Of a stretch of DNA of 64,000 bases, positions 40,069 through 53,034 are shown in pieces. Source of the stretch: Gordonia sp. (in: high G+C Gram-positive bacteria) (GTDB lineage: Bacteria > Actinomycetota > Actinomycetes > Mycobacteriales > Mycobacteriaceae); contig NZ_JASGKZ010000002.1 in assembly GCF_047600385.1 (NCBI RefSeq), positions 84,217 to 148,216 of the forward strand. The letters run 5' to 3'. The position numbers and the translations under genes were made by a program. The notes below the pieces were generated by a model. That model was given only the letters and a program-made list of their open reading frames with translations, made no database searches and was not told where the DNA came from. Position 1 is the first letter of the stretch. Each line of letters opens with the position of its first letter.

Positions 40069-40446
40069 TCACAGGAGTTCCACGTGGCAACGTGTCCCCG
40101 GAGCCCGAGCGAGGCGGGCATCGACCGTCAACAGCGATTCGACATCGAGCGCTTCGGCGAGCGCCACATAGGCCGCGTCGTATGCAGACAAGTTGTGCCG
40201 GAGTTCCCAGACACGCGGCCGAAGCCAGTCCATGGGGTACCGACTGATGTCCATGCCCAAGAAGCCGATCATCGCATCGTTCGCCTGCGCCGACGTCAAC
40301 TGCTGCCGACGCTCCAATGTTCGCAGAGCACTGATCACCTCACAGTCGATCAGGTGGGGCGCCGCCAGCGGAGCTTCCCCCAGCGACTCCGGAGCGAGAC
40401 CTCCCACCAGAAGTTGCACGATCGCACCGGCGTCAATGACCTTCAC
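40069..40446 (-). CDS. vapC: VapC PIN-domain toxin
   Basis: [22 protein letters not shown] acidic tetrad; GTGA overlap with the antitoxin. Confidence 0.9.
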
Positions 40447-40685
40447 TCTCGCCTGTCCGCCTGTAGCGCCGACAAGATGGTCTCGGAATCGAGGGCGGCG
40501 CCCACCGCAACCTGGGTCGCCCGCACCACTTCCGCGTTGCGTCTGACTGATTCCGAGCGCCCGGCGAGCGCTGCGAGTTCCCTTCGCAAAAACTCCGAGA
40601 GAGACAGACCTCGCGCTTGCGCAGCACGCGACAGCGCCTCGTGCGTGGCATCCGGCAGCCCTCGGACCTGAACAACCCTGCTCAT
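40443..40685 (-). CDS. vapB: VapB/FitA-like ribbon-helix-helix antitoxin
   Basis: VQVRGLPDATHEAL...GLSLSEFLRREL, upstream of vapC. Confidence 0.85.
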   Translation of the reverse strand: MSRVVQVRGLPDATHEALSRAAQARGLSLSEFLRRELAALAGRSESVRRNAEVVRATQVAVGAALDSETILSALQADRRE

Positions 40686-40775
40686 ACCTGGACACTACCG
40701 ACCCTGCATGCACAATGCACCCACTTCCGACTTGAACATGCCATTAAGATCAGAACTTGCGCCCCACACGATCAC

Positions 40776-40853
40776 GGGCGCAATCCCCAACCAGGGATGA
40801 TCCGTAGTTTCTTGTGATCGGACACCTGCTCCCCGCCACGGCGGGGGTCGCGG
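40776..40853 (+). ncRNA. CRISPR-derived mini-array / crRNA-like RNA (degenerate repeat, 21-nt spacer, degenerate repeat)
   Basis: psiR1 40776-40803 ends GGGATGATCC (9/10 to the repeat 3' end); spacer TAGTTTCTTGTGATCGGACAC 40805-40825; psiR2 TGCTCCCCGC-CACG-GCGGGG keeps the full 6-bp hairpin. Confidence 0.75.
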
Positions 40854-40889
40854 CCGGGTCACACATCAGGGCCCGGCCGCAACCTTTTC
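40850..40889 (+). terminator. Terminator after the mini-array
   Basis: GCGGCCGGGTC/GGCCCGGCCGC stem followed by AACCTTTT. Confidence 0.75.
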
Positions 40890-41028
40890 ACCATTAAATC
40901 ATATAAATCTCAAACTAGTTACTAGTTATTGGAAGGATCCTTTCCGACCCTGATGTTGGCACCAAATCGCCTCCCACAAAGTCATCCAGAACTCGGTTCG
41001 TATCCGGTATTGTTCGTGGTCAGCAAGT
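40890..41028 (+). promoter_or_regulatory. AT-rich promoter/leader of CRISPR array 1
   Basis: ATTAAATCATATAAATCTCAAACTAGTT in a high-GC background; ends GGTCAGCAAGT before the first repeat. Confidence 0.7.
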
Positions 41029-42449
41029 GTGCTCCCCGCGCGAGCGGGGATGTTCCGAGCTGGCCGAACGCGCCGATTTGCTGTCCCCGGTGCTCCCCGC
41101 GCGAGCGGGGATGTTCCGAGGTCCTGGTCGTTGGGGGTCGGGCCGATCGCGTGCTCCCCGCGCGAGCGGGGATGTTCCCTCGGCCTCGAGGCCCCCCGCG
41201 AATGGCCCAAAGTGCTCCCCGCGCGAGCGGGGATGTTCCCGTCGACCCGGTGCGCCCCCCGATCGAAGAGAGGTGCTCCCCGCGCGAGCGGGGATGTTCC
41301 CCGCAGGACCGGGTAAGAAGCCTGGTTTCCGCGGTGCTCCCCGCGCGAGCGGGGATGTTCCCACCCCGTCCTCTTGCTCGTCCTGGCCGCTACTGTGCTC
41401 CCCGCGCGAGCGGGGATGTTCCCATCGTCGCGTTCCCGGGCGGGGACGTCGACGAGTGTTCCCCGCGCGAGCGGGGATGTTCCCATCTTCCGCAGCCGGG
41501 AGATCACCTCGTCCATGTGCTCCCCGCGCGAGCGGGGATGTTCCCGGCTGCGTGCGGGTGCAGTTGTCGCAATGCAGGTGCTCCCCGCGCGAGCGGGGAT
41601 GTTCCCCTGGCAGGAAATGACGGGGCGATGTGGCACGTGTGCTCCCCGCGCGAGCGGGGATGTTCCCAATACCCTTGTGGGTTGGGAGTGCGGATTAAGG
41701 TGCTCCCCGCGCGAGCGGGGATGTTCCCGCATACGGCAGACCGGCGCGGTCACGGCAGAAGTGCTCCCCGCGCGAGCGGGGATGTTCCCCAGGCCGGCTG
41801 ATCGTTGATCCCGAAGATCCCGTGCTCCCCGCGCGAGCGGGGATGTTCCGGCGGGGCGCGCGCTCTCGGCGAAGAACGAGGCGTGCTCCCCGCGCGAGCG
41901 GGGATGTTCCCAGTCCGCCGGTGGTGGACTGGAAGCAGGGCATGTGCTCCCCGCGCGAGCGGGGATGTTCCCAGGCCGCCCTGGCCGGCGCCTGGTTGAC
42001 GTGCGTGCTCCCCGCGCGAGCGGGGATGTTCCTCTGGCCTGACGGCATCCACTACAAGACCGATGCGTGCTCCCCGCGCGAGCGGGGATGTTCCCGAACT
42101 TCGCATGCGACCGCGTCGTACGAATGTGTGCTCCCCGCGCGAGCGGGGATTTTCCATCCTTGTTGTCCATCAGCCACGCCTTTATGGCGGGCTCCCCGCG
42201 CGAGCGGGGATGTTCCCGCGAGGCTCACTGGAGCGGCCCGTCGATCGGCGTGCTCCCCGCGCAAGCGGGGATGTTCCCGATTTGCCGCTCGGTTTCCGCA
42301 TGGGCTACGCGTGCTCCCCGCGCGAGCGGGGATGTTCCCTTCGGCAAGCCCGGATCGACCGCGCCGCCCAGGTGCTCCCCGCGCGAGCGGGGATGTTCCG
42401 TATTCTCTTGCGATCGGACACTTGCTCCCCGCCACAGCAGGGAGCGCGG
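41029..42449 (+). CRISPR. Type I-E CRISPR array 1: 23 repeats GTGCTCCCCGCGCGAGCGGGGATGTTCC, 22 spacers of 33-34 nt, plus a short terminal spacer and a degenerate repeat
   Basis: Repeats at 61-bp period from 41029 to 42372; degenerate TTGCTCCCCGCCACAGCAGGGAG at 42422. Confidence 0.98.
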
Positions 42450-42480
42450 TCGGACCACGACTCGGGGCCGACCGCAACCT
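42446..42480 (+). terminator. Terminator after array 1
   Basis: GCGGTCGG/CCGACCGC stem followed by AACCT. Confidence 0.65.
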
Positions 42481-42484
42481 CCCA

Positions 42485-42554
42485 GTCATCCATTCATACT
42501 AATATTTAACTAGTTGCTTGTAATTGATGGATACTCACCCATACCATTTCGAGT
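42485..42554 (+). promoter_or_regulatory. cas operon promoter region, containing AAC-TAGTTGCTTGT target site
   Basis: AT-rich; candidate -10 TAATAT at 42500-42505; site 42508-42526 matches the mini-array spacer. Confidence 0.7.
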
Positions 42555-45353
42555 ATGACCCCGATTACACATCCGCCCTACGACAACCCGACCCTCATCG
42601 CCGAGTTGTCTGCCGCGGCGCGTGTACTGTGGGCCAAGTCTGACTACCTCGAGGGCATCGACTGGCTGCCCCTTTACCAGCACATCGCCGACTCCGCCGC
42701 GGTCGCGGGCACACTCTGGGACGAGTTCCTCCCGTCCGCGACCCAGCGCGTCGTCGCGGACGCGTTCGACGGCGATCACGCCCTCGCTCGGAAGATCGCG
42801 GTGTGGCTCGCTGCCAGTCACGACCTCGGGAAGGCGACACCGGCCTTCACCCAGCAGGTCGATCGACTCCGCGAAGAGGTGGAGCAGACCGGGCTCCCCA
42901 TCCGCGCCAACGCCCTCGGGCGCAACAGGGACCTCCCCCACTCCGCGGCGGGATTCCAGATCCTGAAACGCTGGCTGAAGCAGGAGCACGGGTTCAAACC
43001 CAGATTCGCCGCGATGTACGCGTGCATCCCCCTCGGCCATCACGGCTCGTTCCACGCCCCCGCACCCGAGCACGACAGTCTCGACTCCCCACTCCTCGGC
43101 GATTGCGCACAGTGGCATGAGGTGCAGCACGAACTCACCCGATTCGCCGCCGCGACCGCCGGAATGACCGACGCCGATTTCGCGCTGATCGCCGGTCGTC
43201 CGCTGCCGCAGCCCGCCGCCATCATCCTGACCGCGCTGACGATCCAGTCCGACTGGATCGCCTCCAACACGGGCTTCTTCCCGTTGCGCAGCACCCCGCG
43301 CGAGCCCGATGCCGCGGCCGAGGCGATGGCCGCGCTACGACTGCCACCACCGTGGAAGGCCGCTGTACCAGACGATGCCCGACTCTTCTCCGATCATCTC
43401 GGGCTCGCCGATCCAAGGCCGCTCCAGACCGGCCTCGTCGACCTCGCCCGGACGCTCCCCCGTCCCGAACTCATGATTCTCGAGGCGCCGACCGGGGAAG
43501 GAAAGACCAAGGCCGCCCTCGGCGCGAGCGAGGTGCTGGCTACGAGATTCGACCTGGGCGGAGTGCTGTTCGCACTGCCGACGCAAGCGACCTCGGACGG
43601 CATCTTCAGCACCGTCCACGAGTGGCTGCGGACGGCGGGCGGATCGACCGACGTCTCGCTGGCCCTGGCACACGGTAAAGCACAGTTCAACGCCGAGTAC
43701 ACGGCGATCAAGGATCTCCGGCTGTCACCGATCGACGATCCCGACGGCCACGGCGGCATCGTCGCCCACTGGTTCCTCACCGGACGCGGCAAGCTCGCGA
43801 CGACGTCCGACTTCGTCGTCGGCACCATCGACCAGCTCCTCCTCGGTGCTCTCCGCGCCAAGCACGTCGTCCTCCGGCACCTCGGCGTCGCGGGCAAGGT
43901 CGTGGTCATCGACGAGGTCCATGCCGCCGATGCGTTCATGCGCCGATACCTGTGCCGCATGCTCACCTGGCTGGCCGTGTACGACGTTCCGGTGATCGCG
44001 ATGTCGGCCACGCTGACTCCGTCGATCCGGAACGAGCTGATCGGCGCGTACAACGAGGGCCGCGGGCGGCCGGCGCCACGACCTGAGGACGATGAGGCGA
44101 TCGTCTACCCGCGGATCACCTGGTCCACCGACGACGGAGCCGCCGTGGTGGCCCTGCCCGCGTCGTCGCGCACCTCGACGCTCACGGTCTCCGAACTCTC
44201 CGGGTCGACCGAGGACATCAGCGCCGCGGCACTTGCCGCGGCCCGCGATGGAGGTAACGTCGCGGTCGTCTGCAACACCGTGCGCCGAGCTCAGGACGTC
44301 TACCGTTTCCTGAACACCGAGGCCGCTCAGGACATGGACACGATGCTCCTCCACTCGCGGTTCCTCACTCCGGATCGCATGGACAAGGAGCAGGACCTTC
44401 GACGCAGACTCGGTCCCGACTCCACGCACGACGATGCGGCCCGCCCGCTGATCGTCGTGGCGACGCAGGTCATCGAGCAGTCGTTGGACATCGATTTCGA
44501 TGTCATGTTCAGCGACATCGCACCCGTCGACCTGCTCATTCAGCGTGCGGGACGTCTGCATCGTCACTCGTGGAAAGACGAACGACGTCCCCGTGAACAC
44601 CGCACCGCACAGCTGACCCTCACCGGTTTCACCCGGAACGCCGACGGTCCGCCGACCCTGGATCGAGGTTGCCGGGCCGTCTACGGCGCATCCGCGCTCC
44701 TGCGCGCGATCGCCACGCTCGACGAGCATCTCCGCGACCACGAGGTGCTGACCAGTCCCGGAGACGTCGCACCTCTCGTGACCCGGGCCTACGAGACGAT
44801 CACACCGCCGGCCGGATGGGAGGAAACGTGGCGGAACGCCGACGAGAAGGCTCGGAAGTCGAGCGCCGATCAGAAGCAACGCGCCGACACCTTCCGGATA
44901 CCTCCGCCCGGGACGAAGTCCCTGGTCGAATGGGATTCCCAGTCAGTCGGGGATCCGAGCGGCGAGCGGGGCGCAGCACAGGTCCGAGACGGCGAGGACT
45001 CCATCGAAGTGGTCGTCGTGCAGCGGATCAACGGCCGCCGGGTGATCCCGACCTGGGCACACGAGTACCCGGATGAATCGGTCGATCTCGCCACCGTCAC
45101 CGACGATCACTTCGCCCTGGCGGCATCGAAGAACACGCTCCGTCTTCCCGGGTTCCTCGGTTCGGACGGACTCGGCGATCAACTGATCGACGAGTTGGAA
45201 GACGACTGCATCGACACATGGCAGAACTCGCGCTGGCTTCGCGGCGCCCTGCCGCTCGTCCTCGACGAGAACGGGGATGCCACACACGCGGGATTCGATT
45301 TCCACTACGACACCGACCTCGGTCTCGTCGTCACCACCTCGGAGGAGAAATGA
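42555..45353 (+). CDS. cas3: CRISPR-associated helicase/endonuclease Cas3
   Basis: HDLGKA (HD), APTGEGKT, DEVH, MSAT, QRAGRLHRH. Confidence 0.97.
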   Translation: MTPITHPPYDNPTLIAELSAAARVLWAKSDYLEGIDWLPLYQHIADSAAVAGTLWDEFLPSATQRVVADAFDGDHALARKIAVWLAASHDLGKATPAFTQQVDRLREEVEQTGLPIRANALGRNRDLPHSAAGFQILKRWLKQEHGFKPRFAAMYACIPLGHHGSFHAPAPEHDSLDSPLLGDCAQWHEVQHELTRFAAATAGMTDADFALIAGRPLPQPAAIILTALTIQSDWIASNTGFFPLRSTPREPDAAAEAMAALRLPPPWKAAVPDDARLFSDHLGLADPRPLQTGLVDLARTLPRPELMILEAPTGEGKTKAALGASEVLATRFDLGGVLFALPTQATSDGIFSTVHEWLRTAGGSTDVSLALAHGKAQFNAEYTAIKDLRLSPIDDPDGHGGIVAHWFLTGRGKLATTSDFVVGTIDQLLLGALRAKHVVLRHLGVAGKVVVIDEVHAADAFMRRYLCRMLTWLAVYDVPVIAMSATLTPSIRNELIGAYNEGRGRPAPRPEDDEAIVYPRITWSTDDGAAVVALPASSRTSTLTVSELSGSTEDISAAALAAARDGGNVAVVCNTVRRAQDVYRFLNTEAAQDMDTMLLHSRFLTPDRMDKEQDLRRRLGPDSTHDDAARPLIVVATQVIEQSLDIDFDVMFSDIAPVDLLIQRAGRLHRHSWKDERRPREHRTAQLTLTGFTRNADGPPTLDRGCRAVYGASALLRAIATLDEHLRDHEVLTSPGDVAPLVTRAYETITPPAGWEETWRNADEKARKSSADQKQRADTFRIPPPGTKSLVEWDSQSVGDPSGERGAAQVRDGEDSIEVVVVQRINGRRVIPTWAHEYPDESVDLATVTDDHFALAASKNTLRLPGFLGSDGLGDQLIDELEDDCIDTWQNSRWLRGALPLVLDENGDATHAGFDFHYDTDLGLVVTTSEEK

Positions 45354-46945
45354 GCACACCGTCCTTCAACCTCGTCGACGAACCGTGGATCAGCGTGCGA
45401 TCGACCGATCGCCGATCCGCTCTCGTCTCACTGCGCGAACTCTTTCATCGCGCGCCCACGATCCGCCGCATCGCCGGTGAACTGCCGACCCAGGACTTCG
45501 CCGTTCTCCGCATCGCTCTGGCGGTGATGTACCGGGCGCTGGACACCGACGAGAACGTCGACGAGATCTGGGAGTCGGGAACCCTGCCGCTCGACGAGAT
45601 CGACGAGTACCTCGACCGATGGCACCACCGGTTCGACCTGTTCGACGGCGAGCACCCGTTCATGCAGGTCGCCGGACTCAAGAGCGTCTCGGGCGATACC
45701 AAGCCGCTCGGCATCCTCATGCCGGACTCCCCCGGTCCCGGGCATCTGTTCACCATGCGACACGACATCGAATCGGTGTCCTTCGCCGAAGCGGCCCGGT
45801 GGCTGGTGCACTGCCAGGCGTACGACTTCGACGGGATCAAGACCGGGGCGCTCGACGATCCTCGTACAAAAGGCGGCAAAGGTTATCCGGTCGGTATCGG
45901 CTGGGCGGGTTGGCTCGGCGGCCTCTATCTCGAAGGCCACGATCTACGCGAGACCCTGCTGCACAATTGGGTACCGTCCAGAGAGAGCGAGCAGCGTCGG
46001 GACGACCTCGCACTCTGGGAACTCGATCCACTCACCCCGGCTCCCCGCGACCTCGCGGAGATCGGGCCATTCGGGCCAGCGGGGCTGTTCACCTGGCCAA
46101 TCCGACACATCCGACTGATTCCCGGTGACGGCCGGGTAAACCGTGTACTGATCTGCATTGGCGATCCGGTCGCGAAAGCCGTCCAGATGCAGAACGAACC
46201 CATGACATCATGGCGGTACAGCGATCCACAGACGAAGAAAGAGAAGTCCTCGACTCCGCTGTACATGCCACGCAAACACGACCCGACATGGGCACTGTGG
46301 CGAGGACTCGCCTCGCTCCTCCCGACGACGGAACCACCGACGGATACCAAGGGCATCGTCTCGGCACACCCTTCGATGGTCGTCTCACGACTCGCCGAGC
46401 GCATCGCCGAAGACAAGCTCCCGAATCGGTTAGTCGCTCTGGTCTCAGTGGGCGTCGAGTACGGATCCCAGATGTCGACGTACTCCCAGATCTTTAGCGA
46501 CAACCTGGTAGTCCATCCCACCATCGCAAAGGCCGAAGGTGCAGCCCGAGCATGCGTCGTCGACGCTATCAAACGAACCTATGACGCGGTCTCTGCACTC
46601 TCTGGACTAGCCGGAGACCTTGCCGTCACCGACGGCGGCAAACGACCGGAAGCCGCGGAACGTGCCCGAGCCACCGCCTATGCCGCACTTGATCAGCACT
46701 TCCGTGCATGGGTTCAGTATGTCGGCGATCATCGAGACACCAGCGAATTGTCGAACGCCTGGTACGGCATGGCGACCGATGTGCTCTCCGCCCTCGCCGA
46801 TACTCTGCTCGATTCCGCATCGCCGCGGTCCCGGGCGGTCCGAATCGTCGACGGGCATCCGGTCTCGGCCGGCCAGGCGGCGAACTGGTTCCGCTACAAC
46901 CTCTCCAAACATCTTCCGGTCACGCGAAAGGACACAGCGATATGA
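45350..46945 (+). CDS. cse1: Type I-E Cse1/CasA (Cas8e)
   Basis: FNLVDEPWI, RFDLFD..HPFMQV, EPMTSWR; operon position. Confidence 0.93.
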   Translation: MSTPSFNLVDEPWISVRSTDRRSALVSLRELFHRAPTIRRIAGELPTQDFAVLRIALAVMYRALDTDENVDEIWESGTLPLDEIDEYLDRWHHRFDLFDGEHPFMQVAGLKSVSGDTKPLGILMPDSPGPGHLFTMRHDIESVSFAEAARWLVHCQAYDFDGIKTGALDDPRTKGGKGYPVGIGWAGWLGGLYLEGHDLRETLLHNWVPSRESEQRRDDLALWELDPLTPAPRDLAEIGPFGPAGLFTWPIRHIRLIPGDGRVNRVLICIGDPVAKAVQMQNEPMTSWRYSDPQTKKEKSSTPLYMPRKHDPTWALWRGLASLLPTTEPPTDTKGIVSAHPSMVVSRLAERIAEDKLPNRLVALVSVGVEYGSQMSTYSQIFSDNLVVHPTIAKAEGAARACVVDAIKRTYDAVSALSGLAGDLAVTDGGKRPEAAERARATAYAALDQHFRAWVQYVGDHRDTSELSNAWYGMATDVLSALADTLLDSASPRSRAVRIVDGHPVSAGQAANWFRYNLSKHLPVTRKDTAI

Positions 46946-47586
46946 CCGCCACCAGCGAGAACCCCACCAGGCAGGGGATCAATGCGCATGTGGACCGCAG
47001 GGCCCGCGAACTCTTCAAAGGGATGCGGGGAAACAACGGCGCGGCGATCGGCGCCCTCGCCAAGCTGCGGCGTGCCGCGACGTCGGACATCGGGGAGGAC
47101 CCCGCCGCCTGGCAGGTCGCGTTCCTCGGATTCGGTGATCGCACATCGGACGATCTTCCGTTCCCGACCGCACAGGAGACGGGCGTCTACCTGGCGCTCA
47201 CCACGTTCGCTCTCCATCAGCAGTCGAAGAACGAGTCCATGCACGTCGACGGACCGTCCCTCGGTACCGCGCTGAACCGGCTCGCACACGCCGGCGGAGG
47301 AGCCGACGGCCCGAGTGAACCGGTGATCCGCCGGTTCAACGCACTCGTCACTGCCGACTCGGACGAGGAGACGCGCTGGCATCTCCGCAGTCTGATCGGT
47401 CAGCTCCGCGCTCGCAGTATCGAGCTCGACTACGGCCGACTGGCCGACGACCTCGCCGCCCTCGCGGGCCGAACCCGGAAGGGCGAGAACGAAGGCGCGG
47501 CGCGGCGCCGGGTCCAGTTGCAGTGGTCCCGCGATTTCAGCAGAACCCCGAAGACCGCCGACCCGTCGGCGACCACGAACGACTGA
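46942..47586 (+). CDS. cse2: Type I-E Cse2/CasB (Cas11)
   Basis: LAKLRRA, LTTFALHQQS, RRFNAL, LDYGRLADDL. Confidence 0.93.
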   Translation: MTATSENPTRQGINAHVDRRARELFKGMRGNNGAAIGALAKLRRAATSDIGEDPAAWQVAFLGFGDRTSDDLPFPTAQETGVYLALTTFALHQQSKNESMHVDGPSLGTALNRLAHAGGGADGPSEPVIRRFNALVTADSDEETRWHLRSLIGQLRARSIELDYGRLADDLAALAGRTRKGENEGAARRRVQLQWSRDFSRTPKTADPSATTND

Positions 47587-47617
47587 CCTTTTCCACCTCG
47601 AACACCAGGAGTACCTC

Positions 47618-48730
47618 ATGTCCCTCTTCATCGACCTCCACGCCATTCAGTCCGTCCCGCCGTCGAACATCAACCGCGACGAGGACGGCAGCCCCAAGAG
47701 CACCACGTTCGGCGGCACCCGGCGTGCTCGCGTGTCGAGCCAGGCATGGAAACGGGCCATGCGCAACGACTTCGCCGATCACCTCGACGACTCCGAACTC
47801 GGTGTCCGGACGCTCCGTATGGTCGACCAGATCGCCGCGCGTATCACCACTCTCGATGCCGCGATCGACGGCGATGCCGCTCAGCAACGTGCCACCGAGG
47901 TGCTCACCGCGACCGGAATCAAGGTCGAGAAGGTGAAGCCGCGTAAGAACGACGAGAACCAGGACGAGTACTCGAAGACCGGCGCCCTGCTGTTCCTCAG
48001 CAACCCGCAGATCGACGCGCTCGCCGAGTTGGCGGTCACCACCGTCGGCAAGATCGACAGGAAGGCGGCGAAGGCCGTCCTGTCCAAGGGAAATTCGATC
48101 GATCTCGCCCTGTTCGGCCGGATGATCGCCGACGCGCCCGACCACAACGTCGACGCCGCGGCACAGGTGGCGCACGCGCTCGGCACACACGCCGTCGTAC
48201 CCGAGTTCGACTACTTCACCGCGGTCGACGACAAGCAGTCCGACGACAACGCCGGCGCCGGGATGATCGGGACCGTAGAATTCAACACCGCCACGCTTTA
48301 CCGTTACGCCACGGTGAACGTGTCCGTACTAGAAAAGAATCTCGGTGATCCCGAGGCCGTCGCACGCGGCGTCGAGGCGTTCGTCCGGGCGTTCATCACG
48401 TCGATGCCGACCGGCAAACGCAACACGTTCGCGAACAAGACCCTTCCGTCGTTCGTGCTCGTCACTGTACGCACGGACCAGCCGATCAACTTCGCCGGGG
48501 CGTTCGAGGAGGCCGTCGATCCGAAGCAGGGGCTGACCACCGTGTCGATCAAGGAACTGCTCGGTGAAGCGACCCGCACGTACACGGCGTTCGATGCCGC
48601 ACCGGCCGCGTCGTACGCGGTCACCTCCCGGGCCGTCGACGGCCTCGACGAAGTCGCCGCCACGCTGTCTCTCAGGGATCTGGTGACCACGCTCGGCGAC
48701 GAGACCCGCGCCCGGCTCGGGGCAAGCTGA
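47618..48730 (+). CDS. cas7e: Cas7e (CasC/Cse4)
   Basis: SNINRDEDGSPK, RVSSQAWKRA, DLALFGRMIAD, DYFTAVDD, GAGMIG. Confidence 0.96.
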   Translation: MSLFIDLHAIQSVPPSNINRDEDGSPKSTTFGGTRRARVSSQAWKRAMRNDFADHLDDSELGVRTLRMVDQIAARITTLDAAIDGDAAQQRATEVLTATGIKVEKVKPRKNDENQDEYSKTGALLFLSNPQIDALAELAVTTVGKIDRKAAKAVLSKGNSIDLALFGRMIADAPDHNVDAAAQVAHALGTHAVVPEFDYFTAVDDKQSDDNAGAGMIGTVEFNTATLYRYATVNVSVLEKNLGDPEAVARGVEAFVRAFITSMPTGKRNTFANKTLPSFVLVTVRTDQPINFAGAFEEAVDPKQGLTTVSIKELLGEATRTYTAFDAAPAASYAVTSRAVDGLDEVAATLSLRDLVTTLGDETRARLGAS

Positions 48731-49434
48731 TGACGACGCTCCTGCTGAATCTCGCGGCGCCGCAACAGGCGTGGGGGGATTCGAGCCGCTTCACCCAGCG
48801 CCAGACACGACCCGAACCCACCAAGAGCGGCATCGTGGGACTGCTCGCGGCCGCTCTGGGCCGTCGCCGCACCGATCCGATCGAGGACCTCGCCGGACTC
48901 ACCTTCGGAGTCCGGACGGACCAGGCGGGGACGCTGGAACGGGATTTTCAGACCGAGATCGACTGGCGGACCGGGAAATCGCGGGCACTGACACACCGCT
49001 ACTACCTCGCCGACGCCAAGTTCGTCGCCGCCGTCGGCGGCGACGAGGATCTGCTCCACGGCCTCGTCGAGGCACTGATCAATCCCACGTTCCCGCTGTT
49101 CCTCGGCCGGCGGGCCTTTCCTCCCGCGGGTCCTCTCCGCGGAACGCTCGTCGACGACGATGTGCCGTCTGCGCTGAAGAATGCTCCGTGGACTGCGAGC
49201 CCACGGCATCGTCGTGCCCAGGCCGGTCACGTGAGTCTGCCGATCGTCCGAGACGCCGGCCCTGAAGACGACCGGATCGCCGAGTCGATCCGAGATCATC
49301 CGGTCAGTTTCGATCCGGATGCCCGCCGATACGAATGGCGGGACGTGGTGCACGACATCGTGCGGATCGACAACCCCGATTCGCAATGTCCGGCGTCCCG
49401 GCCCGACTGGCTCGCCGCACTGGGAGGTAGCTGA
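48730..49434 (+). CDS. cas5e: Cas5e (CasD)
   Basis: LAAPQQAWG, PTKSGIVGLLAAALG, YLADA, FLGRR. Confidence 0.95.
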   Translation: MTTLLLNLAAPQQAWGDSSRFTQRQTRPEPTKSGIVGLLAAALGRRRTDPIEDLAGLTFGVRTDQAGTLERDFQTEIDWRTGKSRALTHRYYLADAKFVAAVGGDEDLLHGLVEALINPTFPLFLGRRAFPPAGPLRGTLVDDDVPSALKNAPWTASPRHRRAQAGHVSLPIVRDAGPEDDRIAESIRDHPVSFDPDARRYEWRDVVHDIVRIDNPDSQCPASRPDWLAALGGS

Positions 49435-50118
49435 ATGTACATGTCCAGAATCGCTCTGAATCGGCGACGGCGCGGGGCGATGAAGCTGCTCGGCAACCGT
49501 CACGCGATGCACGCCGCGGTCATGTCGGCGTTTCCTCCCGGAACGACGACGGAGAGCGCCGAAGGTCGCGTGCTGTGGAGAATCGACCGGCACGGCAGGG
49601 ATGACATCGAGCTCCTCGTCGTCAGTCCAGCGGAACCGTGTCTCGCACACATCAACGACCAGGCCGGCTGGTCGACCGGATCCGCCTGGGCGACCAGGGA
49701 CTACGACACTTTTCTCCAGTCGATCTCCGCGGGTCACGAGTACGTCTTCCGGCTCACCGCCAACCCGACGCACCGCGTGTCGATCCCCACCGACGACGGG
49801 GTGCGCAAGCGGATCGTCGGCCACGTGACCGACGGGCACCAGCGTCGCTGGTTCCTCGACCGTGCGGAGACGAACGGCTTCAGCGTCGTGGAGAGTTCGT
49901 CGAGTTCCGAGGACGAATCACGGTCGGAGCTGATCCTCACCGACCGTGACACAGCGGTGTTCAACCGTTCAGGTCGGCGGGTGACCCTGCAGACCGCGTC
50001 GTTCGAGGGCCGCCTGAACGTCGAAGACCCGGACCTTCTCCGCCACGCGTTGACCCACGGAATCGGACGTGCCAAAGGGTACGGCTGTGGTCTGCTGACA
50101 CTGCTGCCGGTGGACTGA
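49435..50118 (+). CDS. cas6e: Cas6e (CasE/Cse3)
   Basis: LWRID, FRLTANP, GIGRAKGYGCGLL. Confidence 0.95.
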   Translation: MYMSRIALNRRRRGAMKLLGNRHAMHAAVMSAFPPGTTTESAEGRVLWRIDRHGRDDIELLVVSPAEPCLAHINDQAGWSTGSAWATRDYDTFLQSISAGHEYVFRLTANPTHRVSIPTDDGVRKRIVGHVTDGHQRRWFLDRAETNGFSVVESSSSSEDESRSELILTDRDTAVFNRSGRRVTLQTASFEGRLNVEDPDLLRHALTHGIGRAKGYGCGLLTLLPVD

Positions 50119-51098
50119 TGGCCGAGATCCCCGGAGTCCGTCCGGCGCGTCCCAGCGAGCTGGTCCGTGTTCAAGACCGGCTCTCGTTCATCTACGTCGA
50201 GCGGGCGACGATCGGACGTGACGACAGCGCGATCACCGCCACCGACGACTCCGGTGTCATCCATATTCCAGCGGCCTCACTCGGAGCGCTTCTGCTCGGA
50301 CCGGGGACTCGTGTCACCCACCAGGCGATGTTGTTGATGGCGGACAGCGGTTCGACCGCGGTCTGGGTCGGCGAACGCGGTGTTCGGTATTACGCACACG
50401 GTCGGCCGCTCGGCCGCACATCCCGTCTGCTCGACGCACAGGCACGCGCGGTGTCGAACACCCGGGAACGCATCGCCGTCGCGCGCGCCATGTACGAGAT
50501 GCGGTTTCCGGGTGAAGACGTGTCCGAGTGCTCGATGCAGCAACTCCGAGGACGCGAGGGCGCACGCGTGCGCGGCCTCTATCGAACGCATTCGACCCGC
50601 ACCGGCGTCGAATGGAATCGGCGGGATTACGACCCGGCGGACTTCGCCGCCTCCGACATCATCAACCAGGCACTGTCCGCCGCACACACCTGTCTCTACG
50701 GTGTGGTCCATTCCGTCGTCGTCGCACTCGGATGCAGCCCCGGACTCGGTTTCGTCCACACCGGCCACGATCGATCGTTCGTGTACGACATCGCAGATCT
50801 CTATAAAGCCGAGATCACGATCCCCGTCGCCTTCGATGTCGCCGAGATGATGGCACGTGAGGAGATTCCCGACGACGACGTCGGCGGAATCACCCGCCGC
50901 GCGGTCCGGGATGCCGTGAAGTCCGGTGCGACCTTGACGCGCTGTGTTCGCGACATCCACCGCCTCCTTCTCCCCGAGGAGAAGGGCAGCGACACACAAG
51001 CGGACTACGCGGATGTGATCGAACTGTGGGATGACCGCCACGACAACGTCGTGGGTGGGACCAATTTCGCACCCGAAGACGAGGACCCGTCATGGTAG
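50118..51098 (+). CDS. cas1e: Type I-E Cas1
   Basis: LGPGTRVTH, QQLRGREGARV, GFVHTG, FVYDIADLYK. Confidence 0.96.
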   Translation: MAEIPGVRPARPSELVRVQDRLSFIYVERATIGRDDSAITATDDSGVIHIPAASLGALLLGPGTRVTHQAMLLMADSGSTAVWVGERGVRYYAHGRPLGRTSRLLDAQARAVSNTRERIAVARAMYEMRFPGEDVSECSMQQLRGREGARVRGLYRTHSTRTGVEWNRRDYDPADFAASDIINQALSAAHTCLYGVVHSVVVALGCSPGLGFVHTGHDRSFVYDIADLYKAEITIPVAFDVAEMMAREEIPDDDVGGITRRAVRDAVKSGATLTRCVRDIHRLLLPEEKGSDTQADYADVIELWDDRHDNVVGGTNFAPEDEDPSW

Positions 51099-51436
51099 TA
51101 GTCGTGCTCACGAGTTGTCCCGCGAAGCTTCGCGGACACCTGACCCGATGGCTGTTGGAGATCAGCGCCGGCGTGTATGTCGGCCATGTACCAGCACGTG
51201 TTCGCGACCTTCTCTGGATCCAGGTCGTCGAGTACGTGCAGGACGGCAAAGCGATCATGGTCCATACCGCCGCGGGCGAACAACGGCTGACGTTCCGCAC
51301 TCACCGACATGAGTGGGAGCCGGTGGACCTCGACGGCATCACCCTCATGCGGAGACCTACCGACAACGCGGTCACTCGTGGTCGGGTACGGAAAGGCTGG
51401 AGCACCGCGGCTCAGCGTCGCCGCCGTAGGTCATGA
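51092..51436 (+). CDS. cas2e: Type I-E Cas2
   Basis: LRGHLTRWLLEISAGVYVG, DLDGITL. Confidence 0.94.
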   Translation: MVVVVLTSCPAKLRGHLTRWLLEISAGVYVGHVPARVRDLLWIQVVEYVQDGKAIMVHTAAGEQRLTFRTHRHEWEPVDLDGITLMRRPTDNAVTRGRVRKGWSTAAQRRRRRS

Positions 51437-51535
51437 ACGACTCACGAACGTAGTTACGTGGTATCAAGGCAGGTACCACTCACAGAAGTCATTCTAATTT
51501 CATCTCATGTGAAGTATTCTTCCTGTTCAGGAAGA
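51437..51535 (+). promoter_or_regulatory. Leader of CRISPR array 2
   Basis: AT-rich 99 bp between the cas2 stop and the first repeat. Confidence 0.75.
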
Positions 51536-52955
51536 GTGTTCCCCGCGCGAGCGGGGATGTTCCCAAATCTGACAGTACACCGGTGTCGGTTTTTGCGTGT
51601 TCCCCGCGCGAGCGGGGATGTTCCCTACGCCGCCCTGTCCCGGTGGGCGCACCAACGGTGTTCCCCGCGCGAGCGGGGATGTTCCCGAAGCCGGCTACGC
51701 CCCGAATCCGCAGCTGCTGTGTTCCCCGCGCGAGCGGGGATGTTCCCCCCTCCGGGGAAGCTGGTTCTCGCAGCTTCCGTGTTCCCCGCGCGAGCGGGGA
51801 TGTTCCGGACGGGCGGCGAATCGTCTGCTGCCTGGAGGCGTGTTCCCCGCGCGAGCGGGGATGTTCCCACGAAGTCGCCCTGCGGAGTCTCCCGCTTCCG
51901 GTGTTCCCCGCGCGAGCGGGGATGTTCCGTAGCAGACGAGCATGGGTGCGGCACCGAGGTCGTGTTCCCCGCGCGAGCGGGGATGTTCCGTCGTCTATGG
52001 CCGTGTCGGGCTTTTCTTCTAGGTGTTCCCCGCGCGAGCGGGGATGTTCCGAACCGCACCATGATCGGCGGTGTCCTCGCTGTGTGTTCCCCGCGCGAGC
52101 GGGGATGTTCCCTCGCGGTTCACTTCCATCCCCGACAGCGTCCGGTGTTCCCCGCGCGAGCGGGGATGTTCCCGTCAGCACCACCCGATCCCCGTCGGCG
52201 GCGGTGTGTTCCCCGCGCGAGCGGGGATGTTCCCTTCACCGTCACCCTGCTCGTCCCGGGCGAACTGTGTTCCCCGCGCGAGCGGGGATGTTCCCGGATC
52301 GTCACCACCGGCGGCGGACGCAGCGCGGTGTTCCCCGCGCGAGCGGGGATGTTCCCAGGTTGGCGATCGGTCCGAGGATCGCGCCGAGGTGTTCCCCGCG
52401 CGAGCGGGGATGTTCCCCAGGTGGTTTTCGTCGCGATCAGCACGATGACGTGTTCCCCGCGCGAGCGGGGATGTTCCTGCCTCGCTCCCGGCGTCGCGGA
52501 GGCGGAGGCCGTGTTCCCCGCGCGAGCGGGGATGTTCCCAGGACGACCTCGAAGCCGTCGTAGATCGACACGTGTTCCCCGCGCGAGCGGGGATGTTCCC
52601 GCAGTACAGCTACGTCTTCCTCTGCGACGAGTGTGTTCCCCGCGCGAGCGGGGATGTTCCCCACGCCTGGTGGAACAGGCCACCGCCGGATGGGTGTTCC
52701 CCGCGCGAGCGGGGATGTTCCCCTGTCGGCGGGGACGATCACGATCGCTGAGACGTGTTCCCCGCGCGAGCGGGGATGTTCCCATCGTCGGCGCGCTGCG
52801 CTACTACGTCGGCCGGTGTTCCCCGCGCGAGCGGGGATGTTCCCATGGACACGGCGCTGGAGGTGCGAGCGCTGGAGTGTTCCCCGCGCAAGCGGGGATG
52901 TGTTGGCCGATCCAGGCGTGGCCGTGTGTGTTCCCCGCGCGAGCGGGGATGTTCC
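51536..52955 (+). CRISPR. Type I-E CRISPR array 2: 24 repeats GTGTTCCCCGCGCGAGCGGGGATGTTCC, 23 spacers
   Basis: 61-bp period from 51536; one 60-bp unit (51719) and one 51-bp unit (52877). Confidence 0.98.
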
Positions 52956-53034
52956 TGTTGGATCGCGGTGCGACACAAGCCGCCACTGCCACCGGGGATT
53001 TACTGTCGGCACCGGAAGCGGTGACCAGGTAAGA

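Follow-up and report, generated by a model that had tools for sequence, protein, structure and literature searches.

A candidate CreR-type regulatory mini-CRISPR with a short, duplicated guide at the type I-E cas operon of a Gordonia sp.

Among the described systems closest to the element presented here is CreR of Salmonella enterica, the subject of a study by Liu et al. that reportedly appeared in Cell Host Microbe in 2023. Repression by a type I-E CreR was demonstrated experimentally for this Salmonella RNA, and its relief by crRNAs and anti-CRISPRs was shown in E. coli (Liu et al., 10.1101/2023.03.10.532045). In 'Widespread CRISPR repeat-like RNA regulatory elements', Shmakov et al. (10.1101/2023.03.03.530964) report that about 19% of the I-E loci of bacteria contain mini-arrays. 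Related principles operate in CreTA, found in the Haloarcula hispanica I-B system, and in the CRISPR-repressed toxin of the Citrobacter rodentium I-E system (PMC12055562). Guides of reduced size are known from crRNA-like RNAs, including the viral Cracr RNAs, where an I-E example has a psiS of 24 nt and the median guide of I-F Cracr RNAs is 19 nt (versus 25 nt in their bacterial CreA/CreR counterparts), and guide size in I-F matters for anti-CRISPR resistance (10.1101/2024.10.29.618823).

The window, by which we mean the whole 64,000-nt stretch of Gordonia sp. DNA that was analysed (contig NZ_JASGKZ010000002.1, positions 84,217 to 148,216), carries a complete type I-E CRISPR-Cas locus on its + strand, Cas6e included. 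A first-pass annotation had proposed that a hidden mini-array upstream of array 1 encodes an RNA directing Cascade to the cas3 promoter, adding that the concept itself was known, which is correct, CreR being published and widespread in I-E loci. The parts of the locus that bear on this proposal are the following.

40776..40804, + strand: psiR1 of copy 1, GGGCGCAATCCCCAACCAGGGATGATCC+G, degenerate repeat whose stem AUCCC-caacca-GGGAU (40783-40798) is weak
40797-40804, + strand: 5' handle of psiR1 copy 1, ATGATCCG, 8 nt
40805..40825, + strand: psiS1, the guide, TAGTTTCTTGTGATCGGACAC, 21 nt
40826..40853, + strand: psiR2 of copy 1, CTGCTCCCCGCCACGGCGGGGGTCGCGG, with hairpin CCCCGC-cacg-GCGGGG intact and 3' tail degenerate
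40850..40880, + strand: terminator-like hairpin after copy 1, 31 nt, strong and G+C-rich, without a U tract
40913..40933, + strand: second AAC-flanked site, TAGTTACTAGTTATTGGA, in the upstream part of the array-1 leader
41029..42400, + strand: array 1, 23 repeats (GTGCTCCCCGCGCGAGCGGGGATGTTCC followed by C or G) and 22 spacers; the last repeat (42372-42400) is the psiR1 of copy 2
42401..42421, + strand: psiS2, TATTCTCTTGCGATCGGACAC, 18/21 identical to psiS1
42422..42475, + strand: psiR2', its hairpin with one internal mismatch, and a second terminator-like hairpin (42446-42475)
42500..42527, + strand: putative cas3 promoter region, with candidate -10 TAATAT (42500-42505), PAM AAC (42508-42510) and target TAGTTGCTTGTAATTG (42511-42526)
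42555..51436, + strand: operon of cas3, cse1/cas8e, cse2/cas11, cas7, cas5, cas6e, cas1 and cas2, the genes abutting or overlapping
42555-45353, + strand: cas3
51451..51465, + strand: weak third copy of the box, TAGTTACGTGGTATC, 11/15, in the array-2 leader, preceded by ACG and without a PAM
51536-52956, + strand: array 2

The mini-array (40776-40853) has the degenerate form of two repeats and one spacer and shares its strand with the two arrays and the cas operon, with 176 nt between the end of psiR2 and the first repeat of array 1 at 41029. PsiR1, the 21-nt guide, the psiR2 hairpin and the hairpin that follows are all present as first described. The claim that psiR1 keeps both its handle and its stem holds for the handle, which agrees with the canonical ATGTTCCC/G at 6/8 positions, but less well for the stem, which is weak (see below). 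A hairpin of other sequence stands in relatives at the place equivalent to 40850-40880, and a search of Rfam with 40500-42700 gave no relevant match. Array 2 ends irregularly (52860-52956), with a repeat cut short after GGGGATGTG, a 22-nt spacer and a final full repeat ending in T.

Compared with the described systems, the element displays each of the features by which the CreR or regulatory mini-array family is recognised in sequence, namely a handle in psiR1, a hairpin in psiR2, a seed-intact and PAM-flanked match to an inferred cas promoter, and conservation with co-variation in relatives. Like Salmonella CreR, it is a degenerate psiR1-psiS-psiR2 unit within a I-E locus that has kept the 5' handle of psiR1 and the hairpin of psiR2, its match to a cas promoter is partial, with the seed intact and a PAM beside it, and no toxin gene is coupled to it. 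Salmonella CreR is located between cas3 and casA, represses PcasA and has 15 consecutive matching bases behind an AAG PAM. In Gordonia, by contrast, the element precedes cas3 and would repress everything from cas3 to cas2; it uses an AAC PAM, has a match interrupted at positions 6, 12 and 15 and a 21-nt guide, and belongs to a cassette duplicated around an array. With the class 1 mini-arrays of Shmakov et al. it shares PAM-flanked partial targets in the promoters of effector genes and the mismatch at every sixth position, but the I-E targets of that survey lie in the cas8 promoter (10.1101/2023.03.03.530964), and the Gordonia locus further differs from those mini-arrays in combining a standalone cassette with an array-terminal paralogue. 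Gordonia is not named in the main text of either Liu et al. or Shmakov et al. CreTA and the C. rodentium system resemble the element in that a crRNA-like RNA guides repression by Cascade through partial pairing; CreTA, however, represses a toxin that makes the cas genes addictive (PMC12055562), and no toxin gene was found directly behind either targeted promoter in the Gordonia window, where the targets precede cas3 and the array-1 leader. The viral Cracr RNAs are alike in having guides below the canonical spacer length, but those with the shortest guides are anti-CRISPR elements borne by phages and plasmids, whereas the Gordonia element is chromosomal and sits at its host's own cas locus. What sets this locus apart is a target before cas3 that would bring the entire operon under control, a guide of the short class and a cassette that brackets an array.

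Guide TAGTTTCTTGTGATCGGACAC and target TAGTTGCTTGTAATTG are identical at positions 1-5, 7-11, 13, 14 and 16, and the AAC flank and the TAATAT hexamer reported with this match were both confirmed. The pattern TAGTT.CTTGT occurs exactly twice in the 4.28-Mb genome (both strands), once in the guide and once at the cas3 site. When up to one mismatch is allowed, the window contains three matches to the seed pattern against 0.18 expected, a number reached in 0 of 100 shuffles; the third of these (40916) is the AAC-flanked paralogue of the cas3 promoter site found in the array-1 leader. The guide match at the cas3 site is far beyond chance. The target (42511-42526) lies 44 nt before the cas3 ATG and 2 nt after the -10-like TAATAT, and it is from this position and this TANNNT-like hexamer only that we infer a promoter at 42500-42527, a consensus scan having found no sigma-70-type promoter at the cas3 target site. 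The guide reads in the sense of the cas3 mRNA and can therefore pair only with template-strand DNA, and control of cas3 mRNA by an antisense RNA was ruled out on the same ground. We know of no machine other than Cascade that reads a site made of a PAM and an intact seed.

The identity of the PAM can be approached through the spacers of the window, several of which match Gordonia and Rhodococcus phages. AAC flanks the protospacers in Gordonia phage Clawz (tape-measure gene) and Rhodococcus phage ReT1v-1 (portal gene), and AAG the one in Gordonia phage Reyja; a fourth protospacer match is more diverged than these three and uninformative. The terminal base of an I-E repeat originates from the PAM, and base 29 of the repeat is C in 34/47 and G in 9/47 repeats of the window, in agreement with the protospacer flank in 3/3 informative cases. 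Phage protospacer flanks and repeat base 29 therefore show AAC to be the preferred PAM of the window's I-E system.

Evidence that the match has been maintained comes from the genus. In 92 Gordonia species genomes (the window's own included), a related cas3 was present in 12, and ten relatives with I-E loci, from named Gordonia species and found with a Cas3 alignment query, were examined. In 9 of these 10 congeneric loci, a psiR1-guide-psiR2 cassette followed by a hairpin is located directly upstream of cas3, and the best non-self match of its guide within the locus (9-19 kb, both strands) falls 97-139 nt downstream on the same strand. The targets of these nine are flanked by AAC (n=5), AAT (n=2), AAA (n=1) or TAC (n=1). 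Seeds vary by species (TAGTT, TAGGT, TGGAT, TAGGC, TGGGT, GTTGT, GCAG, AGTGA) and the targets follow them: the mean guide-promoter score is 12.6/15 for cognate and 8.5/15 for non-cognate pairs, and the observed sum is reached in 0/100,000 permutations, a test in which the related genomes are not independent, though the seeds themselves have diverged. The co-variation of spacer and promoter across related I-E loci, which the first-pass annotation had listed as a check on its reading, is thus present. The repeats also carry compensatory changes, in the stems of psiR1 beside the conserved handle (CCCCT/AGGGG, CCCT/AGGG, CCCG/CGGG, CCCAGC/GCTGGG) and likewise in those of psiR2 (e.g. CCCTAC/GTGGGG, CCCCT/AGGGG).

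Guide positions 6 and 12 are flipped out by Cascade, and this leaves a trace in the alignments. Across 10 Gordonia loci, paired positions are identical in 129/150 cases and the flipped positions 6 and 12 in 0/20. By position, matches occur in 9-10 of the loci at 1-5, 7-8 and 10-11, in 7 at position 9, and in 4-9 at positions 13-17, while positions 18-21 match at chance level. A 5+1 periodicity of this kind marks a guide that is carried on the Cas7 backbone of a type I Cascade. Together, the conserved architecture, the co-variation, the mismatches at 6 and 12 and the phage-derived PAM argue strongly for the CreR-type Cascade autorepressor first proposed. On a separate note, the count of identities at positions 6 and 12 (0/20 with about 5 expected; 2/32 when six further pairs are included; in each case against ~25% if neutral and with kinship ignored) is drawn from the guide-target pairs of the window (40805/42511) and of loci L036-L045, and the zero identity could reflect selection rather than neutrality.

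The one exception among the congeners is G. defluvii (L039), in which the psiR2 hairpin and the PAM-flanked target are both gone; a handle (ATCTTCCG), the cas operon and a 20-repeat array remain. This is a natural loss of the circuit, leaving a decayed mini-array, and since both hairpin and target were lost the circuit is dispensable. Apart from G034 and G. effusa, none of the relatives' loci gave a second guide match of at least 12/15. In G. effusa, a second, weaker AAC-flanked match lies 25 nt upstream of the main site. G034 (L042) offers another case of a duplicated cassette: on the reverse strand, at ~1150-2240 of the reversed locus, there is a second CreR-like cassette 1665 nt upstream of the cas3-proximal one, with an AAC-flanked target (GTTGTCCTTTTTATATAG) ~20 nt before an ORF of 170 aa. 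This ORF has no Pfam or NCBIfam match, and beyond it are a convergent HTH_3 (XRE-like) ORF and an IS256-family transposase fragment. The 170-aa ORF is a candidate for a Cascade-repressed cargo gene in a CreTA-like layout.

The design extends beyond Gordonia. When the regions before 75 cas3 genes were scanned with a strict filter, it was recovered in Corynebacterium amycolatum, Pseudoclavibacter caeni, a Propionibacteriaceae MAG and an Actinomycetales MAG; on the forward strand the filter left 10 loci with matches, all with a proper handle, and on the reverse strand, used as a control, 5 loci, none with a handle. A loose automatic CreR scan of 75-80 actinobacterial cas3 loci returned mostly array repeats. 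Pattern scans of metagenomes for closer relatives of the cassette gave either nothing or chance matches and one ordinary array, and no match to the cas3 region was found in a plasmid collection.

In the Gordonia sp. studied here the cassette occurs twice. The stretch 40794-40933 is paralogous to 42390-42527 (80% identity across the first 80 nt), and both copies carry the end of a repeat, a 21-nt guide, psiR2 and a hairpin, followed by an AT-rich stretch, AAC and the TAGTT box. Copy 2 forms the terminal unit of array 1 and occupies the position of the relatives' single cassette. The coexistence of standalone and array-terminal copies fits the origin of mini-arrays from the terminal unit of an array, as proposed by Shmakov et al. 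(10.1101/2023.03.03.530964). PsiS2 differs from psiS1 at positions 3, 5 and 11, and its seed fits neither box; no other exact site for its seed pattern was found in the genome, where relaxed matches number 7 against about 10 expected (a base-composition estimate) and are without PAM. Copy 2 has lost its seed match and is probably decaying, and copy 1, which keeps both a typical degenerate psiR1 and a matching seed, is likely to be the active copy. The idea that the psiS2 substitutions are concentrated in the seed was dropped, since the fall of 3/3 on pairing positions has a probability of ~0.24 and is not significant.

The guide also has a site, the paralogue of that before cas3, in the leader of array 1. 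Against TAGTTACTAGTTATTGGA it is identical at positions 1-5, 7, 8, 10, 11, 13, 14 and 16-18, with the PAM kept. This box, which follows copy 1, stands upstream of a leader core (AAGTCAT...GTATT.TTC.TG.TCAG.AAG) that is conserved between arrays and between species. The site may tie array 1 to the same feedback loop, but control of array 1 by the guide, though possible, is uncertain because the conserved leader core may carry the array's own promoter. The third box, in the array-2 leader, lacks a PAM and is probably not bound, and the TAGTT box is absent from the array leaders inspected in a relative.

The 21-nt guide sets both copies of this genome apart from the congeners, eight of which have guides of 32 nt and one of about 34 nt. 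The 11 nt that are missing fall beyond the pairing region. Short guides with intact seeds and targets are also found in C. amycolatum (20 nt), the Propionibacteriaceae MAG (about 22 nt) and P. caeni (22 nt), so that, counting the window, there are four independent lineages with guides ~10-12 nt below the canonical 32 nt. The mini-arrays in question lie at 2250-2400 in C. amycolatum DSM 6922 (L084), 2300-2420 in the Propionibacteriaceae MAG (L085) and 2230-2370 in P. caeni (L110), and the promoter targets of their guides are flanked by AAT or AAC. In E. coli, crRNAs with shortened spacers form Cascade with fewer Cas7 subunits, and spacers of >20 nt still support interference (PMC5159557). By this analogy the short guide is plausible and probably functional, and it is not new in kind; all the same, an 11-nt deletion from a guide conserved at 32 nt could equally be a mark of decay.

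The stem of psiR1 in copy 1 is among the weakest of the set, with 3 contiguous G-C pairs (null fraction 0.19) that become 5 pairs when the handle's first two bases are included, and a competing hairpin (GGG-cgcaat-CCC) is possible. Since the stem is weak, cleavage by Cas6e at psiR1 is less certain than was first implied. There is in addition an inverted repeat at 40770-40819, GATCACGGG at 40770 and CUUGUGAUC within the guide, by which the 5' flank of the primary transcript is predicted to pair with guide positions 7-15; such pairing could mask the guide before processing.

The first-pass annotation had also seen something out of the ordinary in the combination of a truncated guide, a duplicated cassette and a neighbouring vapBC. 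The truncation to 21 nt and the duplication both stand, but the short guide is not unique and we regard the vapBC neighbour as incidental. On the minus strand at 40069-40685, divergent from the mini-array, are genes for a FitA-like RHH (VapB-like) antitoxin of 80 aa and for a 125-aa protein whose PIN match is below threshold. No guide match was found at this vapBC-like pair, and the upstream genes beside the cassette differ in relatives, where the pair is not conserved; on these two grounds a functional link between the pair and the cassette was rejected.

Taken as a whole, we consider it probable (roughly 0.76) that the element is a CreR-type regulatory mini-CRISPR of the Gordonia I-E system, whose guide RNA would place Cascade on the cas3 promoter and so lower expression of the operon. 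The region 40776-40880 would be transcribed from a promoter of its own, stopping at the hairpin at 40850-40880, and Cas6e would cleave the hairpins of psiR1 and psiR2, each at its base, to leave an RNA of ~50 nt in which the 21-nt guide stands between the 8-nt handle AUGAUCCG and a 3' handle formed by a 21-nt hairpin. This RNA would be loaded into a Cascade that, by analogy with the short-spacer complexes of E. coli, probably has fewer Cas7 subunits, and the complex would act as a roadblock on the cas3 promoter or the early transcribed region. The R-loop, being short and interrupted, would not license Cas3, and transcription of the operon from cas3 to cas2 would be lowered as a whole. Ordinary crRNAs would compete for the Cas proteins, and repression would accordingly ease when crRNAs are abundant or when anti-CRISPRs inhibit Cascade. 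The production of the RNA, its processing and the repression are steps that we infer from sequence.

Several other explanations of the same observations need to be considered. The circuit might be real in the genus and the copy in this genome a decaying relic, giving little or no functional guide RNA, with a match that is inherited and not maintained. The guide of 21 nt where eight congeners have 32, the three contiguous pairs of the psiR1 stem, the mismatches of copy 2 at seed positions 3 and 5 and the loss of the circuit in G. defluvii would all be in keeping with this, yet copy 1 retains a perfect seed (1-5, 7-11), the AAC PAM, the psiR2 hairpin and the terminator hairpin, and the 20-22-nt guides with intact seeds and targets in three other actinobacterial lineages argue that the short form works. 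In E. coli, moreover, a spacer that barely exceeds 20 nt does not prevent a crRNA from entering Cascade and acting (PMC5159557). We regard a relic as unlikely.

A role for copy 2 seems much less likely again, whether as the source of the effective RNA (alone or together with copy 1), as a mainly non-targeting competitor or decoy for Cas proteins, or as a guide to some other target. Its canonical repeat upstream and near-intact hairpin downstream would favour good processing, the upstream repeat being perfect, and it sits immediately before the cas3 promoter, the ancestral place, where the relatives have their cassette. Seed mismatches, however, abolish binding in I-E systems, and those at positions 3 and 5 should do so at both boxes; nor does the genome offer psiS2 another exact seed site, the relaxed matches being at chance level and PAM-less. 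The least likely explanation, to which we give hardly any weight, is that a protein regulator common to the CRISPR-related promoters uses the TAGTT box as its operator or promoter element, the copy in the mini-array being incidental. The box does occur in three places that resemble promoters, one before cas3 and one in the leader of each array. Against this, the upstream copy begins in every case exactly after the 8-nt handle of a repeat and, for most relatives, stops 32 nt short of the repeat hairpin, only the downstream copy has a PAM, the identity between copies shows the 5+1 periodicity of Cascade, and the array leaders inspected in a relative are without the box.

Starting from the CreR-type reading, a more speculative extension can be put forward, which we think improbable as a whole. 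Actinobacterial I-E CreR guides may form two length classes (32 nt and 20-22 nt), the short class giving a dedicated Cascade that lacks two Cas7 subunits, binds and never licenses Cas3; in the Gordonia sp. studied here, the duplication may in addition have put the transcription of array 1 under the same guide, with the supply of crRNAs and of Cas proteins sharing one loop.

A mini-array acting in the manner proposed would extend RNA-guided Cas autorepression to Gordonia and related Actinobacteria, in a form that covers cas3 and the adaptation genes and not the Cascade genes alone. The ten congeneric loci would constitute a natural mutational series for the pairing rules of I-E Cascade in vivo, displaying a seed at positions 1-5 and 7-11 with pairing that extends to roughly position 17 and leaves 6 and 12 free. 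Anyone working on Gordonia phages, or wishing to employ the native I-E system in gene silencing or editing, would have to reckon with such a loop.
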